In this document: in pieces, positions 11,549 to 28,177 of the stretch | How positions within the stretch are numbered: position 1 is the first letter of the stretch | Layout of the letters: each line of letters begins with the position of its first letter | From: a virus | Taxonomy: Duplodnaviria > Heunggongvirae > Uroviricota > Caudoviricetes | IMG/VR virus record: IMGVR_UViG_2563366895_000004 | Length of the DNA stretch: 28,177 nucleotides | Direction: 5' to 3' (one strand) | The notes under the pieces: model-generated | Seen by the model: only the letters and a program-made list of their open reading frames with translations | What the model was told of the DNA's origin: nothing | Databases searched by the model: none | Translations under genes and position numbers: made by a program

Positions 11549-12271
11549 CTAAGAAAATCTTGATAAATATTGGTGCGGAGGCACACCAAAATATCCTCTA
11601 AAAACACTTACAAAATATGATGCATTGTCATACCCGCATATTCCCGCCACCTTGCCGACAGTATGGTTACTGTAGATCAATAATCTTTGCGCCATCATCA
11701 TTCGTTCTTCAAGAATTAATTTACTAAACGATAATCCTTCGTCTTTTAATTTTCTTTTTAACAAACTCTCGCTCATATATAATCTTGAAGATATATCACA
11801 AAGTCTCCATGACGCTGAGATATCCGAGTGAATAATAGCCTTAACTTTACAACCTAAGCTATTAAGACTTCCGAACAAAAAACTTTGCACTATTTTCTCT
11901 GAAGATAAGACAGCAAGACATGCAAGTGATATTTGATTTCTAACTACATCCACGGTTTTGCTATCACAATTCAAGCATGCAACCAAGTTCTTTAACAATG
12001 AAAAATCTTCACATTCTACTATCAAGTATGACGTATAAAACCTTCTTACAGAAAAAGGTGAGAGTGTGTAGTTTTTAAAGAAATCATTAACTGTTTTCTC
12101 CTCAACATCTACGATCATTAGATGATCTGTATTTGACGAAAAAAGATCTTTTAAATTGTATTCAATGAGGACAGCATTTCCTTTTTTAAACAAAATATCT
12201 TCTTTACCAATTCGGACACCAAACGAGTTCAACACCAAAATGATAGAACATATGTATGACATATTATCCAC
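11549..12271 (-). CDS. AraC/XylS-family transcriptional regulator (AppY/GadX/Rns-like), AT-rich moron
   Basis: 240 aa; C-terminal double HTH 'SESLLKRKLKDEGLSFSKLILEERMMMAQRLL...GYDNASYFVSVFRGYFGVPPHQY'. Low-GC codon usage; about 400-bp AT-rich upstream region. Confidence 0.75.
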   Translation of the reverse strand: MDNMSYICSIILVLNSFGVRIGKEDILFKKGNAVLIEYNLKDLFSSNTDHLMIVDVEEKTVNDFFKNYTLSPFSVRRFYTSYLIVECEDFSLLKNLVACLNCDSKTVDVVRNQISLACLAVLSSEKIVQSFLFGSLNSLGCKVKAIIHSDISASWRLCDISSRLYMSESLLKRKLKDEGLSFSKLILEERMMMAQRLLIYSNHTVGKVAGICGYDNASYFVSVFRGYFGVPPHQYLSRFS

Positions 12272-12668
12272 CTGATATCATTGGGGTTACACCAGGTAAG
12301 TATAGGTGGAAAATCAATATTCGCCAGTTCAACAATAAGGAAAATCTCATTGCATCACAACTATAAAACCATGTGTTTAACTCACAAAAAACAAATCATT
12401 AAACTAATCTGTTATATTATAATAGCTGCGTGCAATAATAATATTATATGCTCTTTATATTCACTTGAAATATCTTCATATAAAAACAGATTGAATAAAA
12501 TCTTTTGGGGCTGGTATGTTTACCAACATTAAATTGCATCTCAATGTTTTCTTTAGCGTGAACAGGATTTTTATAAAAACTGACACTATGAGCATCATAG
12601 CGTAGTTTTTACGATTGTAAATATCCTGCATACAGGAACTCATCACTTTCAGATGATATCGCATACAG

Positions 12669-13628
12669 TTAATTCACCATCAGTCTTAGAGCCAGTTCTT
12701 CCGGATAGGGATCGAAGTAATTCTGTGTAAGCAAGTAATCATTAGGATACTCACCCAGATAATGCTTCAGCAGAGTCAACGGCGCAAGAAGAGGCAATGT
12801 GCCAAAGCGATAGTTAAGTATAACCTCGCTCAACTCTTTACGCTGGCGTGTACTTAAGTAATTACTAAAATACCCCTGTATATGCATCAGCACATTCGTG
12901 TGATTTTTACGTGATGCTGGTTTTCTGAGAATCGCCATCAGATTATCACGATACACCTCAAAGTATGATTCAAGGTCCGCCCACTCGTGTATTGCAGCCA
13001 CAAATGGTCCCATATCTTTATAGCCTGCCTGGCTATGCGCCAACAACTGAAGCTTATAACGACTATGAAAAGCTAATAACTCTCTTCTTGATAATTTCTC
13101 CTTGTAAAGGTGATTGAGCTCATGCAAAGCAAAAACTCTTTCAATAAAATTCTCACGAAGCACTGGATCATGTAATCGCCCATCCTCTTCAACCGGTAGC
13201 CAGGAAAACTTTTCCATCAAAGTGCTCGTAAATAGTCCCACTCCATCTTTACGACCTCGATTACCATTTTCATCATAGACACGCACGCGCTCCATGCCAC
13301 AGCTGGGAGATTTAGCACAAACCACAAACCCCGATACATCCTTTAATTTGTCCATATAAGAACGACTAAACTCTGTCATTCTCTCTGTCACATCCTCATT
13401 CTGGTCATGGCTGAAACACATCCGTATATTTCCTTGCTTCGAGCGCACAAGTCGTAGAGCAGGACGCGGAACTGGCAGCCCTATAGCCATTTCCGGACAT
13501 ACTGGTCTGAATGTTACCCATTCCACTAATTTGTCCATTAAAAAGTCATCTCTTTTGTGACCACCATCAAAACGAACAGCAGAACCGCCCAAACAACCGC
13601 TGATCCCAATCACAGGTTTTTTTATCAT
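12669..13628 (-). CDS. DUF523 (TudS-like) / DUF1722 (YbgA-like) fusion protein
   Basis: 319 aa; N-terminal 'GISGCLGGSAVRFDGGHK' and further Cys residues typical of the DUF523 Fe-S family; C-terminal half resembles YbgA. Family assignment from memory. Confidence 0.55.
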   Translation of the reverse strand: MIKKPVIGISGCLGGSAVRFDGGHKRDDFLMDKLVEWVTFRPVCPEMAIGLPVPRPALRLVRSKQGNIRMCFSHDQNEDVTERMTEFSRSYMDKLKDVSGFVVCAKSPSCGMERVRVYDENGNRGRKDGVGLFTSTLMEKFSWLPVEEDGRLHDPVLRENFIERVFALHELNHLYKEKLSRRELLAFHSRYKLQLLAHSQAGYKDMGPFVAAIHEWADLESYFEVYRDNLMAILRKPASRKNHTNVLMHIQGYFSNYLSTRQRKELSEVILNYRFGTLPLLAPLTLLKHYLGEYPNDYLLTQNYFDPYPEELALRLMVN

Positions 13629-13820
13629 TTCCTCCCCCTTGACTAATTCATTAACACATAAACTTTGTAGTGCACGGACTAAATTGCCTTTCTGGCTTCA
13701 TCACTGACAATTTTTCTGTTATTGACTATTCCTAATATAGTAGGAAAGTTCTTTAAGTGATCGGTCGTACTCATCTATCTTTCATACTTACTCTCAACTA
13801 TCAAAAGTACAGGATTTATT

Positions 13821-14345
13821 ATGAAGTTATGGCCTGTGTTGACTGGCATTGCACTCTCTTTCACTCTTATAGCATGTAAGGCCCCGACACAACCTAAAGG
13901 TGTGCAGCCGATTACAAATTTTGACGCCAACCGCTACCTCGGAAAATGGTATGAAATAGCTCGCCTCGAGAACTGGTTCGAACGTGGTCTGGAACAGGTC
14001 AGCGCTACTTATGAAAAACGGAACGACGGAGGGATTCGCGTACTTAACCGTGGATACGATCCAACGAAAAACAAATGGAGCGAGAGCGAAGGTAAAGCAT
14101 ACTTTACTGGAGATACTAAAACTGCAGCGTTGAAAGTTTCGTTTTTTGGCCCCTTCTATGGTGGCTATAATGTAATCAAACTGGATGATGAGTATAAGTA
14201 TGCTCTTGTCAGTGGTCCGAACAGAGAATACCTATGGATTCTGGCAAGGACCCAAACTATTCCAGATAATGTAAAAGCAGACTATGTGCGTACCGCTCAA
14301 AAGTTGGGATTCAATGTCAATGAACTATTATGGGTTAAACAATAA
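13821..14345 (+). CDS. Bacterial lipocalin (Blc-like) outer-membrane lipoprotein
   Basis: 174 aa; signal peptide with lipobox 'LIAC'; lipocalin motif 'NFDANRYLGKWYEIARLENWFERG'; 'ALKVSFFGPFYGGYNVI' closely resembles recalled E. coli Blc. RBS 'aggat' upstream. Confidence 0.85.
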   Translation: MKLWPVLTGIALSFTLIACKAPTQPKGVQPITNFDANRYLGKWYEIARLENWFERGLEQVSATYEKRNDGGIRVLNRGYDPTKNKWSESEGKAYFTGDTKTAALKVSFFGPFYGGYNVIKLDDEYKYALVSGPNREYLWILARTQTIPDNVKADYVRTAQKLGFNVNELLWVKQ

Positions 14346-16660: not shown

Positions 16661-16689
16661 AAATAAAAACAAAAACCCGCCGAAGCGGG
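16661..16689 (-). terminator. Rho-independent terminator downstream of hokD
   Basis: Minus-strand hairpin 'cccgc ttcg gcggg' followed by 'tttttgttttt'. Confidence 0.6.
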
Positions 16690-16759
16690 TTAAGTGCGGG
16701 TGCGTTGAGGATGCCTGCCACATCAGAGGTGGCGAGGGATTTCTCCCTCGCCGGGTCTC

Positions 16760-16915
16760 TTACTCCTCAGGTTCGTAAGCTGTGAAGACAGCGACCTCCG
16801 TCTGGCCGGTTCGGATTCGTACCTCGCAGAGGTCTTTCCTCGTTACCAGTGCCGTCACTATGACGGTTAAACAGATGACGATCAGGGCGATTAACATCGC
16901 CTTTTGCTGCTTCAT
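16760..16915 (-). CDS. hokD: Hok-family type I toxin (HokD/RelF)
   Basis: 51 aa 'MKQQKAMLIALIVICLTVIVTALVTRKDLCEVRIRTGQTEVAVFTAYEPEE' matches recalled RelF/HokD. The ORF track extends it to 16972 (in-frame leader). Confidence 0.85.
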   Translation of the reverse strand: MKQQKAMLIALIVICLTVIVTALVTRKDLCEVRIRTGQTEVAVFTAYEPEE

Positions 16916-17565
16916 AGCCTGCTTCTCCTTGCCTTCCGGCACGTAAGAGGCTAACCTACATGTGTCTAGCATGAAATTGGCCTCAGATTAATGTTAAGCG
17001 TCTTGCAGGACGCGTAATGTTAACTGGGGCTTTTCTCTATCTGCCTTTGGTGTTCATGCCCGAGGCAGATAGCCTCAAGCACCCGCAGCCATTCTACTTA
17101 ACTACCTTTACCTCGCCAATATGAAATCAGTCAGAAAGGCGATCCATAAGAACAATAGCAAGACAATAAATCGCCATTACAGCCGTAATAGCCAGCGCAC
17201 ATTTGAGAACCAGCACCACAACCTCCTGTATTGGACGTACACCAGTCCTGATAAATATGAGGCTGTCTCGTCCGTGATTCAATACAACTATTGGGTATGG
17301 TTTCTCTGATTTTTCTGTGGAAATGGAGCTCAACCACTAGTCACCACCAGCACTTCTTTTAATACGCAAAGTCCGACGCAAGCCAACAGGTTCAATTTCA
17401 TATATATGAATTTTAAGCAGTATTCACCTACACGATTATTAGCAATTTCCTGAATATATGATGGAGTGTCTTGACGATTTTAGACCAGAAACGCCCTCCA
17501 CGTATTTCTGAGCGTACGCAACATATGTTATGGCAAATGCGAGCATATGGTAGAGTCAAATAAGT

Positions 17566-17596
17566 AAGAGCCACCCGCAGGTGGCTCTTACTTTTA
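17566..17596. terminator. Hairpin (possible bidirectional terminator) overlapping the stop codon of the 591-aa gene
   Basis: Perfect 9-bp stem 'aagagccac'/'gtggctctt' with loop 'ccgcag'; T/A-rich flanks on both sides. Confidence 0.5.
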
Positions 17597-19369
17597 CTCT
17601 TGCAATTCGATGATCTGCTCTTTACCTAGTAGATGATTAATAATATTTAATACTTTTTCTCTGTTCTGGAAGAATCTTGCTATATAACTATTGGGGAAGA
17701 CTTCCTGTATGTGATTATAAGTATCAGAAGCCAGCTCTATACATTCCTCCAGTGAAACGTTTCGGCTATAAGAGAAGATGTGATTCTCCACAGAGGAAAC
17801 TTCTATTTTATTCATGAGTATGGATATTAAAACATAATTTCCATGAATCATTATTTGATGAATCTGCTTCTGATTTTCCATATCTACTGATAGTAGTTTA
17901 ACTATACTTTCTTGCAATATATCATTTGCTAATCTATAAGCATTTACTTTATTTATTATATCTAAACCGGTAGGACCATTTTCAGCTGGGAATACTTTTT
18001 CATAAAGACCTCCCCAGCTTTCAAAAAAACGTCCTCTATTTAGTTTTAAGGAAGATATCAATGTTTCATCTTTAGAGGCACACACTAATGCGTTTAAAGC
18101 ATCATCAATATCAATGGTATTACCACCTGTCTGGCTGGAGTCTTCTTGCCTGAGTAGTTTGTAGCTATATCCGCCAATAAAGTTTATTTCTCTTTGTATT
18201 CTTTGTTGCTCGGGCCTCTGTGATGAGAAATCTCTTCCAGTAACCCTGTTTTGTGTATTGTTGAATTTAGTGACAGAGGTTAAAAAATCTTCTTTTGCTG
18301 CACTGATAAATCTAATGCTCACCTTGATTAGATCTTTTTTTTCTTCGGGTAAAGAGTTGAACACTTCACCAATAGTGCTTACAGTTTGAGCTCCATTTAT
18401 TATACTCAGACTTTTAAAACTAAATAGCCCGTACTTCCTGCTTGTACTTAAGTTGATCATGCTTTCTTCTACATCACTATATACAGCAGTTATCCCATTG
18501 TTATAGTACCAAAAATTCTCCGGCTTTTCACTTAATGTTTTCTTTATCCCAGAGTTTATGGATGAATTACCGAGGACACTTCTTATATTTTTCTCGAACA
18601 GAGAGTACTTGTACTTTTCCCACCAGTCGTATAGGATCCTTGCGGATATTGTTCCGTATATTGCTTTATAAGGTTCTGCTATCTCTCCATAACTTTCAAG
18701 GTGAACATTGCTAACATTTATAGATTTTGATCGATCATTAGAAAGACCATCCATTATCACTTGTATACCTGCCGGCTCGAATAGCACTGAATACTCATCT
18801 CTATTCTCTATATCTTTAAATAATAGAGACCGATTCTGAACCTTTTCCCAAAACTCTATGTCTGATTTTACTTCTTCGCTTGGCTCATGAACCCCTGTAT
18901 ATATAAATACACATATACATTTATATGTAAATCCTGAGATTGCTTCAATTATGGAGTCTTTGTTTCTTAAAAACCTTTCGTTAAATGTTGTAAAGTCGCT
19001 GGCTATTACTTTTGCGCATGCGTCTTTGAATCTTCCGAATTCTCTTGTGGTTATAGAACCGTCGCCATTTTTAATATATTTTGACTGAACTATTACTATC
19101 TTTCTCGAATTTTTATTAACATAAACTGCATCTATCCCGCCATCATCTTTTCCATCGCAGACAGCATTAGCAGCTAACTCAGGGTCTGGTTCATCACCAT
19201 ACAAGCTGATTGCATGCGCAGCTACACAGCGTGTAATTAGAGTTTCTTTCCTATGCTCTCCTACGGAATTAATATCTTTCATATCAATAAAAGTTCCGTA
19301 TATAGACTCTAATTGATTAGTTATGCGTACTAAACCTGCTGTTTGCGTGGCTTTGTCGTACTGGGACAT
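17594..19369 (-). CDS. Putative abortive-infection / phage-defence protein (AIPR-like; N-terminal PD-(D/E)xK-like motif)
   Basis: 591-aa AT-rich ORF with own promoter and terminator. 'DGGIDAVYVNKNSRKIVIVQSKY' fits a D...(E/Q)xK nuclease motif; 'NNGIT' and 'INGAQT' motifs. Family assignment is from memory and needs an HMM search. Confidence 0.5.
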   Translation of the reverse strand: MSQYDKATQTAGLVRITNQLESIYGTFIDMKDINSVGEHRKETLITRCVAAHAISLYGDEPDPELAANAVCDGKDDGGIDAVYVNKNSRKIVIVQSKYIKNGDGSITTREFGRFKDACAKVIASDFTTFNERFLRNKDSIIEAISGFTYKCICVFIYTGVHEPSEEVKSDIEFWEKVQNRSLLFKDIENRDEYSVLFEPAGIQVIMDGLSNDRSKSINVSNVHLESYGEIAEPYKAIYGTISARILYDWWEKYKYSLFEKNIRSVLGNSSINSGIKKTLSEKPENFWYYNNGITAVYSDVEESMINLSTSRKYGLFSFKSLSIINGAQTVSTIGEVFNSLPEEKKDLIKVSIRFISAAKEDFLTSVTKFNNTQNRVTGRDFSSQRPEQQRIQREINFIGGYSYKLLRQEDSSQTGGNTIDIDDALNALVCASKDETLISSLKLNRGRFFESWGGLYEKVFPAENGPTGLDIINKVNAYRLANDILQESIVKLLSVDMENQKQIHQIMIHGNYVLISILMNKIEVSSVENHIFSYSRNVSLEECIELASDTYNHIQEVFPNSYIARFFQNREKVLNIINHLLGKEQIIELQE

Positions 19370-19407
19370 CCTTTGCGCTCCTGAACATGTAACAAAATAT
19401 GATTCGC

Positions 19408-19437
19408 ATTATAAGATTTTTTTAATGTTTAGCCGAA
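19408..19437 (-). promoter_or_regulatory. Sigma70-type promoter of the 591-aa gene
   Basis: Minus-strand 'TTCGGC'-18 bp-'TATAAT', then 'AGGAG' 8 nt before the ATG. Confidence 0.45.
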
Positions 19438-19660
19438 GAGTTTTTTGCATGAGTTATGACATAAGTTTAGTTCGTAGTTCTGCGATATAGTTTTCTCCTG
19501 AAAACAAAAAACATCTGGGGCATGAGGTGAGCTCCGAAAGTTGGACATCTCAACGATTATGTCAAGAGCGTCTACTGGGACGTGGTCTGTGTAAACGGTC
19601 ACTCCTAGTACAAAGCAGACAACAATGCCAGTTTTAATCTAATCCTATACAACAGAAATG

Positions 19661-20116
19661 TCATTTCACATTTGAACTAATGCACTTTAATATCGTTACT
19701 TCAAAATGCTGAACATTTCCCTGATAAAACGCCAGTATGCGTTGCATCACTTCGCTCTTCCGGCACTCGCGACAGATTATGTTTAGACGACTGTCGTAGC
19801 GACGTATTTCTCCGTCAGGTAATGACCAGATAAGGTCCGGATCAACCACAGCAGGTTTCTTCACCTTTGCCCTCGAGAGTTTTTTGCGGGCGTTTTGCCA
19901 GTCCTTACGCGCCTGTTCAGACGGGAATAACCCGTAGCCGGAGTTGTATACATCGCCACTGGCTACCAGCTCTCTGGCAAGAACGCTCATCAGATATCTA
20001 GTCGCACCTGTTTTAGCTTCCAGTTGCCGTAACGTCTCACGACCGCTCTGGCGCACGAGTTCCACCACCTGCCCTTTAATTTTTTCCCGCTCTTCTTGTG
20101 TAAAAACTTTTGCCAC
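19661..20116 (-). CDS. Hypothetical protein in the replication module (position of helicase-loader/P)
   Basis: 151-aa ORF directly downstream of the O-like gene; no Walker motif; no family recognised. Confidence 0.5.
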   Translation of the reverse strand: MAKVFTQEEREKIKGQVVELVRQSGRETLRQLEAKTGATRYLMSVLARELVASGDVYNSGYGLFPSEQARKDWQNARKKLSRAKVKKPAVVDPDLIWSLPDGEIRRYDSRLNIICRECRKSEVMQRILAFYQGNVQHFEVTILKCISSNVK

Positions 20117-26881: not shown

Positions 26882-28177
26882 ATGAGAGAAGTTGAAATGA
26901 AATATCCGACAGGCGTGGAAAACCATGGAGGGAAATTACGTATCTGGTTTGTTTATAAAGGCGTAAGAGTCAGGGAAAACCTGGGGGTTCCTGACACAGC
27001 AAAAAACAGGCGCGTTGCAGGTGAGCTACGCGCCTCTGTTTGTTACGCAATAAAAACTGGTGTTTTCGACTATGCAAAACAGTTTCCCTCCTCACGCAAT
27101 CTGGAAAAATTTGGTGAGACTCGACAAGATTTAACCATAAAAGAACTGGCTGAAAAATTTCTGGCACTGAAAGAAACTGAAGTCGCAAAAACATCACTCA
27201 ACACATACCGTGCCGTCATCAAAAATATCCTGAGCATAATCGGTGAAAAAAATCTTGCCTCATCGATTAATAAAGAAAAATTACTGGAGGTTCGTAAAGA
27301 GCTACTGACTGGATACCAGATCCCCAAAAGTAACTATATTGTTACACAACCAGGGAGATCGGCTGTAACTGTAAATAATTACATGACAAATCTTAACGCC
27401 GTGTTCCAGTTTGGTGTTGATAACGGTTACCTGGCAGATAACCCGTTTAAGGGGATCTCGCCATTAAAGGAATCAAGAACCATTCCGGATCCTCTTTCGC
27501 GGGAGGAATTCATCCGTCTTATCGATGCGTGCAGAAATCAGCAAGCCAAAAATTTATGGTGTGTTTCTGTTTATACTGGCGTTCGCCCTGGTGAGCTGTG
27601 TGCACTTGGATGGGAGGACATAGATCTGAAAAATGGAACAATGATGATCAGGAGAAATTTAGCAAAAGACCGTTTCACGGTACCAAAAACACAGGCGGGA
27701 ACCAATCGGGTCATTCATCTTATTAAGCCAGCAATCGACGCTCTCCGGAGTCAGATGACATTAACGAGACTGAGCAAAGAGCATATCATTGATGTTCACC
27801 TCAGAGAGTATGGCAGAACAGAAAAACATAAATGCACCTTTGTTTTTCAACCTGAAGTGTCAGCGAGAGTAAAAAATTATGGTGACCATTTTACCGTTGA
27901 CTCAATAAGGCAGATGTGGGACGCAGCGATAAAACGTGCCGGACTCCGCCATCGAAAATCATATCAGTCGAGACATACTTATGCCTGCTGGTCGCTGACA
28001 GCTGGTGCTAATCCGGCATTTATAGCAAACCAGATGGGCCATGCAGACGCGCAAATGGTATTTCAGGTATACGGAAAATGGATGTCTGAAAACAATAATG
28101 CACAGGTAGCTTTGTTAAATACACAGTTAAGCGAGTTTGCCCCAACCATGCCCCATAACGAAGCAATGAAAAATTAA
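26882..28177 (+). CDS. intQ: Tyrosine integrase, full length (start may be 26897 'MKYPTG')
   Basis: 431-aa ORF ending at the last base of the window; box I 'TGVRPGELCAL', 'HRKSYQSRHTYA' (HxxR), and C-terminal 'GHADAQMVFQVYGKW' with catalytic Tyr. Confidence 0.85.
   Translation: MREVEMKYPTGVENHGGKLRIWFVYKGVRVRENLGVPDTAKNRRVAGELRASVCYAIKTGVFDYAKQFPSSRNLEKFGETRQDLTIKELAEKFLALKETEVAKTSLNTYRAVIKNILSIIGEKNLASSINKEKLLEVRKELLTGYQIPKSNYIVTQPGRSAVTVNNYMTNLNAVFQFGVDNGYLADNPFKGISPLKESRTIPDPLSREEFIRLIDACRNQQAKNLWCVSVYTGVRPGELCALGWEDIDLKNGTMMIRRNLAKDRFTVPKTQAGTNRVIHLIKPAIDALRSQMTLTRLSKEHIIDVHLREYGRTEKHKCTFVFQPEVSARVKNYGDHFTVDSIRQMWDAAIKRAGLRHRKSYQSRHTYACWSLTAGANPAFIANQMGHADAQMVFQVYGKWMSENNNAQVALLNTQLSEFAPTMPHNEAMKN

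Follow-up and report, generated by a model that had tools for sequence, protein, structure and literature searches.

The question raised by IMGVR_UViG_2563366895_000004, a 28,177-nucleotide virus record, is what is encoded by the AT-rich gene that sits between the replication module and hokD of its Qin-like prophage, and whether that gene acts against phages. The original prediction, made on this whole stretch of DNA (the window, to which positions refer unless another record is named), took the gene to lie in a self-contained cassette and to encode a candidate anti-phage protein of AIPR/Abi type. The gene is an open reading frame (ORF) of 591 amino acids on the minus strand, 17594..19369, with an ATG start, exactly as had been given, and those elements of the original prediction that could be put to the test were borne out. 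Profile matches, residue conservation and comparison across prophages point to an AbiU (AbiU1/AIPR) single-polypeptide anti-phage defence gene, a moron that occupies a variable cargo slot in a defective Qin-like prophage, and a probability of about 0.7 is assigned to this reading.

Family membership and predicted domain architecture

The AIPR/Abi-type identity of the protein is borne out by three profile collections. Pfam AIPR (PF10592) matches residues 258-413 with 115.7 bits against a cut-off of 25 (E = 4.5e-33), over model positions 1-158 of 308 only; the PADLOC AbiU profile PDLC02357 matches residues 66-393 with E = 6.9e-24, a partial match (profile positions 44-366 of 537) rated by its E-value and profile span and not by PADLOC coverage thresholds; and PHROG 1841 ('Abi alpha-like abortive infection') covers the whole protein with E = 7e-103. 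All 30 aligned relatives also match Pfam AIPR, and the identical protein WP_000084874.1 is named 'AIPR family protein' in RefSeq. The family comprises 4876 clusters at 50% identity with E <= 1e-3 and 395 with E <= 1e-30, and most of the best 150 representatives listed are colinear proteins of 550-590 amino acids. The gene and the predicted parts of its product are placed as follows.

17594..19369, minus strand: AbiU/AIPR-family coding sequence, 591 amino acids, RefSeq WP_000084874.1; identified by ORF and by Pfam, PADLOC and PHROG matches
18770..19192, minus strand: predicted N-terminal PD-(D/E)xK (FokI/MspJI/Mrr-like) nuclease domain, residues ~60-200
19079..19156, minus strand: putative catalytic signature D72-x3-D76-x3-D80-x14-Q95-S-K97, five residues invariant in 138 of 138 relatives
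18125..18724, minus strand: AIPR core, residues ~216-415, with a predicted ParB/Srx/DUF262-like fold; KNIR, NNGIT, NGAQT and NxQN...RDF motifs
17597..18124, minus strand: helical C-terminal domain, residues 416-591, with a possible sensing or oligomerisation role

AbiU of Lactococcus lactis is the prototype of the AIPR family PF10592, and the 2026 FEMS review assigns no mechanism to it (PMC13064643). That review, citing Dai et al. 2001, reports a 10- to 100-fold drop in plaquing and a delay in phage transcription with lactococcal AbiU (AbiUi) on its own. A Vibrio AbiU defined by DefenseFinder has been verified as a defence system, against which the phage protein Surt acts (bioRxiv 10.1101/2024.06.14.598830). 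The suggestion that a system of this type may be uncharacterised was therefore overstated: AbiU has long been known, is included in standard defence finders and has a proven defensive member in Vibrio, and the protein itself was already annotated. That AbiU exists as a system is established; what lacks characterisation is how it works.

An AbiU-like protein of 589 amino acids from the Lactococcus cremoris plasmid pC42 matches the PADLOC AbiU profile with E = 1.2e-177 over positions 1-532 of 537. It agrees with the E. coli protein of the window in length and in the order of its domains (about 590 amino acids, a nuclease-like domain and then an AIPR core), and D76, D80, Q95-S96-K97, N261/R263, NNGIT and NGxQT are aligned between the two. 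The two differ in an insert of about 23 residues between D80 and QSK of the lactococcal protein and in the C-terminal third, which is not profile-alignable; moreover, lactococcal AbiU is plasmid-borne, whereas the E. coli protein belongs to a Gram-negative prophage and is without an abiU2-like gene downstream. On pC42, the AbiU-like gene is followed by a 341-amino-acid gene (locus L013, 4215-5240, plus strand), presumably abiU2/AbiUii, which has no PADLOC match and no counterpart in the E. coli cassette. The E. coli protein therefore counts as a divergent AbiU (AbiU1/AIPR) family member and not as a close homologue of the lactococcal AbiU-like protein.

Assignment to three other groups was considered and rejected. 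MzaE of the MZA system and DndB, the phosphorothioation regulator, have an AIPR core in common with the protein (PMC3506569), but the MzaE model (NCBIfam NF041935) scores only 57.6 bits against a cut-off of 1050 (E about 1e-15), and the adjoining genes are DUF977 and hokD, not mza or dnd. Neither the locus itself nor the surroundings of relatives contain dnd genes. HEPN was proposed for some AIPR proteins by Makarova et al. 2012; here, the alignment contains no Rx4-6H motif, and no HEPN family is found among the profile and fold hits.

Residue conservation was determined on an alignment of 138 representatives with a pairwise identity of at most 50%. D72, D76, D80, Q95 and K97 are invariant in all 138, including the D and QxK residues that had been singled out, and the same is true of N261, N290, N291, G292, N325, G326, Q328, N371, Q373, F381, Y403 and Y456. 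The motifs of the core are KNIR (260-263), NNGIT (290-294), NGAQT (325-329) and NxQN...RDF (371-381). Each motif named in the original prediction, D80...IVIVQSK (91-97), NNGIT and INGAQT (324-329), is present and is invariant or nearly so across the family. The nuclease signature appears to be under strict selection, and the ParB-fold domain seems equally constrained.

A restriction-endonuclease core fold, by which membership of the PD-(D/E)xK superfamily was judged, was found at the N-terminus. By secondary structure, D80 begins strand 81-85 and Q95 and K97 end strand 90-97, and this D80...Q95/K97 arrangement is that of the canonical PD-(D/E)xK hairpin. The modification-dependent enzymes MspJI and AspBHI likewise have a glutamine at the second catalytic position. 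Compared with FokI and MspJI/AspBHI, the protein is without a Type IIS recognition domain or an SRA-like reader domain, and there is no sequence-profile match to their nuclease domains. As a separate observation, the loop after QxK (residues 99-111, IKNGDGSITTREF; 19037..19075, minus strand) resembles an EF-hand calcium-binding loop and gave recurrent sub-threshold EF-hand matches in the Pfam and PDB profile searches. A non-acidic first ligand position makes it probable that this likeness is coincidental.

In structural comparison, the modelled AIPR core is matched best by BrxU, and SspE was also found. The nearest functional analogues are GmrSD, BrxU and SspE, enzymes of Type IV restriction and phosphorothioate-sensing defence in which a ParB-like NTPase domain (DUF262) controls a nuclease. 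They are similar to the protein in that a ParB/Srx-fold domain and a nuclease domain are combined in one defence polypeptide, and the core resembles theirs in the placing, by secondary structure, of I-x-G-x-Q at a strand-to-helix junction, a setting similar to that of the DGQQR motif of DUF262 proteins. They differ in that the nuclease here stands first and is of PD-(D/E)xK type, whereas theirs is HNH (DUF1524) and the order is reversed. Membership of the GmrSD/BrxU/SspE group was rejected, since it requires DUF262 with DGQQR and a DUF1524 HNH domain: no Pfam match to DUF262 or DUF1524 was obtained, and NGAQT is without the arginine of DGQQR. No match to DUF262, DndB or ParBc came from permissive Pfam scans, whether of single domains or of the 30 aligned relatives, and the C-terminal helical domain (416-591) gave no convincing match. 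The protein divides into three predicted parts, a FokI/MspJI-type PD-(D/E)xK domain, a ParB/DUF262-like AIPR core and a helical C-terminal domain.

The cassette, its limits and its expression signals

The gene is embedded in a segment whose parts are listed here.

17388..19656, no strand assigned: variable cargo segment (cassette) of the Qin-like prophage, flanked by DUF977 and hok/sok
19408..19437, minus strand: putative sigma-70 promoter, with -35 TTCGGC at 19437..19432, an 18-nucleotide A/T-rich spacer and -10 TATAAT at 19413..19408
19378..19382, minus strand: Shine-Dalgarno sequence AGGAG, with the ATG (19369) 8 nucleotides downstream; read from the sequence
17562..17593, minus strand: perfect hairpin with a 14-bp stem and a 4-nucleotide loop, directly 3' of the stop codon; scanner match
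17389..17561, no strand assigned: non-coding tail that moves with the cassette; kept in the Enterobacter hormaechei plasmid copy, where indels break the small ORFs

The gene is AT-rich relative to its neighbours, as had been noted. Its G+C content (GC) is 0.352, and 0.302 at third codon positions (GC3), compared with 0.482 and 0.493 for the DUF977 gene and 0.475 and 0.509 for the O-like gene. The whole window has a GC of 0.438, and values per 500 nucleotides fall to a trough of 0.34-0.37 at the cassette gene, against 0.46-0.51 in the flanks.

Homology with prophages that have the same backbone and other cargo stops at 17387 (L003, a DUF4209 carrier) or 17269 (L004, a SIR2 carrier) and restarts at 19656/19657 in both, a few bases beyond the DUF977 stop codon. 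In 266 further E. coli genomes, the 50-bp flank 17338-17387 is the only part of the interval 17338..19660 to match. The limits given by comparison, 17388..19656, lie within 50 bp and 4 bp of those first proposed for the cassette (17338..19660). Of 5426 complete E. coli genomes, 38 carry the cassette, including the enterotoxigenic E. coli (ETEC) strain E24377A; all 38 carriers have an intact ORF of at least 99.8% identity, and 37 have the same flanks. That the gene might prove to be a conserved core gene of related phages had been named as a ground for refutation, and this is not the case at the frequency found; the gene is accessory. In E. coli SW070912 (NZ_CM129860.1), an IS3-family transposase lies within or beside the AIPR cassette, and the match is split in two over 3.66 kb.

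An E. hormaechei plasmid encodes a 96%-identical protein in a wholly different neighbourhood. The DNA homology is exactly 17389..19590, at 90% identity, and extends beyond the gene by about 220 bp on its 5' side and about 205 bp on its 3' side. It takes in both the upstream and the downstream signals, and the cassette travels with them as one unit, in agreement with its description as self-contained. It is a horizontally acquired module of about 2.2 kb, consisting of promoter, gene and hairpin. Three small ORFs within the cassette were rejected as partner genes: the 57-amino-acid ORF at 19429..19602 has no usable spacing to a ribosome-binding site (RBS), and neither it nor the ORFs of 48 and 35 amino acids (17428..17574 and 17439..17546) is conserved as a protein in E. 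hormaechei, the small ORFs showing about 30% amino acid identity at about 85% nucleotide identity, with indels. An Rfam search of the cassette gave no RNA family match. Megablast of the phage collection found no DNA near-identical to the cassette, and the phage relatives found at the protein level are distant, with 31% identity over the full length in Aggregatibacter phage S1249 and 26% in Klebsiella prophages.

Relatives of the protein occur in 116 plasmid records. A 59%-identical relative is found on 5.6-kb MOBP plasmids of Citrobacter, Klebsiella, Salmonella and Enterobacter, which carry rep, mob and a RelE/ParE toxin, the AIPR gene being the only other recognisable accessory cargo; in C. 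freundii pRHBSTW-00658_4 (5631 bp), the gene (1191-2951) lies directly downstream of rep and overlaps its end. The Serratia relative lies in a prophage beside umuDC, that of Pectobacterium adjoins ccdA and helix-turn-helix (HTH) genes, and that of Cronobacter adjoins an integrase fragment. No conserved neighbour or partner gene was found across six independent contexts, and this genomic comparison suggests a stand-alone gene that needs no conserved partner.

The promoter elements that had been proposed (TTCGGC, an 18-nucleotide spacer and TATAAT) and the AGGAG sequence are all present. The E. hormaechei plasmid copy keeps the -35, the spacer, an identical TATAAT, the 5' untranslated region (UTR) and the RBS; upstream of the Cronobacter orthologue, the -10 (as TATGAT), the UTR and CAGGAG are retained, and CAGGAG is invariant in three orthologous upstream regions. 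A consensus promoter scanner did not call the cassette promoter site, owing to the poor -35. The hairpin has a free energy of -31.1 kcal/mol (z = -6.6 relative to shuffles), and in the E. hormaechei copy its stem has undergone a compensatory change of A-T to G-C (CCACC/GGTGG to CCGCC/GGCGG) while the loop differs, suggesting that the structure is under selection. The stem is perfect, as predicted, but it does not cover the stop codon: the hairpin starts at the base after the TAA, and only the outer helix of the minimum-free-energy fold extends to the stop. It is likely to be a terminator or a 3' mRNA-stabilising element, and it does not have the appearance of a textbook intrinsic terminator. 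The retention of the -10, RBS and hairpin across genera suggests selection on the expression signals, and expression from the lysogen is plausible.

The prophage and the DUF977-hokD slot

The window covers the whole Qin-like prophage, from the host major facilitator superfamily (MFS) transporter gene ydfJ at its left end (1..1284, minus strand) to the integrase (26882..28177). The order on the minus strand is cro, ydaT, the O-like gene, DUF977, the AIPR cassette, hok/sok, rem, ydfU and Q, and because the genes listed from cro to Q are all on this strand, the cassette could be transcribed by read-through during lytic growth. A 1193-amino-acid ORF (3197..6778, minus strand) combines the N-terminus of the terminase gpA ATPase (amino acids 40-110) with a tail-fibre/Peptidase_S74 C-terminus. 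There is a junction near 6470, with other genomes matching 1-6471 on the tail-fibre side and strain STLEFF_47 matching from 6470 onward on the terminase side, and the portal, capsid and tail genes of STLEFF_47 are missing from the window. The internal deletion that took these genes left a chimera that is still in frame, and the prophage is defective.

Comparison of the locus across prophages supports the proposal of a variable cargo slot, with other cargo found between the same flanks. Occupants in other genomes are DUF4209/PDC-S39, SIR2, DUF5677, QueH, an alpha/beta hydrolase, a DUF7167 small-gene set and a methyltransferase, and the K-12 derivative J53 has hokD-relE-relB-ydfV-flxA, which agrees with the relBE/ydfV/flxA content given for K-12 in the original prediction. 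The 595-amino-acid DUF4209 protein is encoded on the opposite strand (L003, 2391-4178, plus strand) and matches the PADLOC candidate PDC-S39 with E = 3.7e-102. The 319-amino-acid SIR2 protein (L004, 3190-4149, minus strand) has weak matches to defence SIR2 proteins and adjoins an IS481 transposase, and the DUF5677 and DUF7167 cargo is without a PADLOC match. INSC1002 (NZ_CP045977.1) was rejected as an empty ancestral site, as a deletion of 17240-19819 truncates its DUF977 gene (360 versus 456 nucleotides), and no truly unoccupied slot was seen among the prophages compared. With conserved flanks and interchangeable, accessory content, the DUF977-hokD position is a prophage cargo hotspot, or moron slot.

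The slot resembles the P2 and P4 hotspots (Rousset et al. 2022) in being a fixed prophage position for interchangeable cassettes with their own promoter, and the cargo of the P4 hotspot includes AIPR-domain genes (PMC9122126). It differs in that the prophage is Qin-like and lambdoid and the slot lies where the replication module ends, ahead of hok/sok and Q. Moreover, not all of its cargo is recognisably defensive, as QueH, DUF5677 and DUF7167 have no PADLOC hit or are metabolic.

Two further regions of the prophage were noted. A second probable moron block lies at 11549..14345, with the lysis genes on one side and the Q antiterminator gene on the other, and consists of an AraC-type HTH regulator (11549..12271; local GC 0.29-0.34), a 2-thiouracil desulfurase and DUF1722 protein (12669..13628) and a lipocalin (13821..14345, plus strand). 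Next to the cassette, the sok antitoxin RNA has a clear Rfam match at 16910..17084 (117 bits), and the Hfq-binding small RNA isrK has a full-length, sub-threshold Rfam match just downstream of hokD (16670..16751, minus strand; 25.7 bits against a gathering score of 50, E = 0.01).

Mode of action and alternative explanations

In the lysogen, the AbiU protein would be produced in small amounts from the promoter of the cassette and kept in an inactive state. A cue from infection, either phage DNA in a particular state or a phage protein, would be read by the AIPR core, the C-terminal domain or both, and would lead to DNA binding and self-association, thereby pairing two nuclease domains as FokI-type domains require. 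The paired domains would then cut DNA, and phage gene expression and replication would be blocked or delayed. The outcome might be direct immunity, if only phage DNA is cut, or abortive infection, if host DNA is cut too.

Several observations weigh against an AbiU defence gene that works in this way. Identity with the lactococcal AbiU-like protein is 18% overall, with BLASTP significant only for residues 257-360, and the C-terminal third of the E. coli protein falls outside the matched parts of both Pfam AIPR and PADLOC AbiU. The N-terminal domain did not reach a sequence-profile match to a nuclease family, Mrr_cat_2 (E = 0.11) being sub-threshold and the only recurrent match in the permissive Pfam scans; sequence and profile searches of the PDB with the full length and the N-terminal domain returned only melanocortin-receptor and EF-hand-like noise, and Foldseek against the PDB found nothing significant. 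A phage-resistance phenotype is known for lactococcal and Vibrio AbiU only, not for this clade, and the sensing, dimerisation and target-choice steps are entirely inferred. With regard to expression, TTCGGC agrees with TTGACA at only 2 of 6 positions, although the -10 and RBS are kept in orthologues; the hairpin stem is followed by a poor T-run (ATTTGAC), making termination uncertain; and a GC of 35% exposes the gene to possible H-NS silencing in E. coli.

These last points bear on whether the gene is a silent passenger, intact but unexpressed in a decaying cryptic prophage. The defective state of the prophage (deletion junction near 6470), the weak -35, the IS3 element within or beside the cassette in one genome and a GC of 35%, which is typical of H-NS targets, would all fit with this. 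A silent passenger is nevertheless improbable, as none of the 38 genomes has a broken ORF or one of less than 99.8% identity, and the -10, RBS and hairpin are kept across genera, the hairpin with its compensatory change. An equally improbable alternative is that the gene serves its carrier, by excluding or destroying competing plasmids or prophages or by stabilising the element, with any anti-phage effect being incidental. The 59%-identical relative that overlaps rep on 5.6-kb mobilizable plasmids with a RelE toxin is in keeping with such a selfish role, as are the 116 plasmid records and the occurrence of ParB-fold domains as typical parts of plasmid partition and silencing proteins (KorB, pNOB8 ParB). 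The cassette contains no parS-like repeats or partner ParA gene, however, and the invariant nuclease signature, the other defence candidates in the same prophage slot and the anti-phage phenotypes measured in the family (PMC13064643; bioRxiv 10.1101/2024.06.14.598830) argue against it.

AIPR proteins are often encoded in restriction-modification (RM), Dnd and MZA operons (PMC2292703, PMC3506569), and the weak MzaE match raises the idea of an orphaned subunit of such a multi-gene system that is inactive without its partners. This is highly improbable: the match is far below the MzaE cut-off, no partner genes were found in the six independent contexts, the colinear architecture of 550-590 amino acids is kept among the best representatives listed of the 395 clusters, and AbiUi alone is enough for resistance, as PMC13064643 reports from Dai et al. 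2001. A remaining alternative concerns the mode of action and not the family assignment, namely a Type IV-like restriction dependent on DNA modification or structure, in which a nucleotide-gated ParB/DUF262-like sensor would direct the FokI/MspJI-like domain to cut foreign DNA only, giving direct immunity. It is doubtful, though less so than the preceding alternatives, in view of the missing DUF262 and DUF1524 hits and DGQQR arginine, the low fold scores for the core, the lack of any DNA-modification reader domain (SRA or similar) among those found, and the historical classification of the family as abortive infection.

The AbiU assignment confirms and refines the existing annotation and does not alter current understanding. 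The AbiU system type, the RefSeq annotation of the protein and the defence-finder profile were already known; new here are the description of the enterobacterial clade at domain level, the map of invariant residues, the precise limits of the mobile unit and the recognition of DUF977-hokD as a cargo slot. The AbiU/AIPR family is widespread and routinely reported by defence-annotation tools, and the protein, found in ETEC strain E24377A, provides a tractable E. coli example in which the invariant D...QxK, NNGIT and NGxQT residues are specific targets for point mutation. The slot can be mined for further candidates, several of its occupants being of no known function. A tentative suggestion is that the enterobacterial clade, and with it the AbiU/AIPR family as a whole, may be a functional analogue of GmrSD-type enzymes with permuted domains. 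A ParB/DUF262-like, nucleotide-gated DNA clamp or sensor would permit a FokI-like D...QxK nuclease to dimerise and to cut phage DNA in a certain chemical or structural state, and the family-specific helical domain at the C-terminus would set the specificity of the trigger. If true, this would provide a mechanism for AbiU, described in 2001 (Dai et al.), and bacterial immunity would have a second, independent case of a ParB-fold switch coupled to a nuclease.

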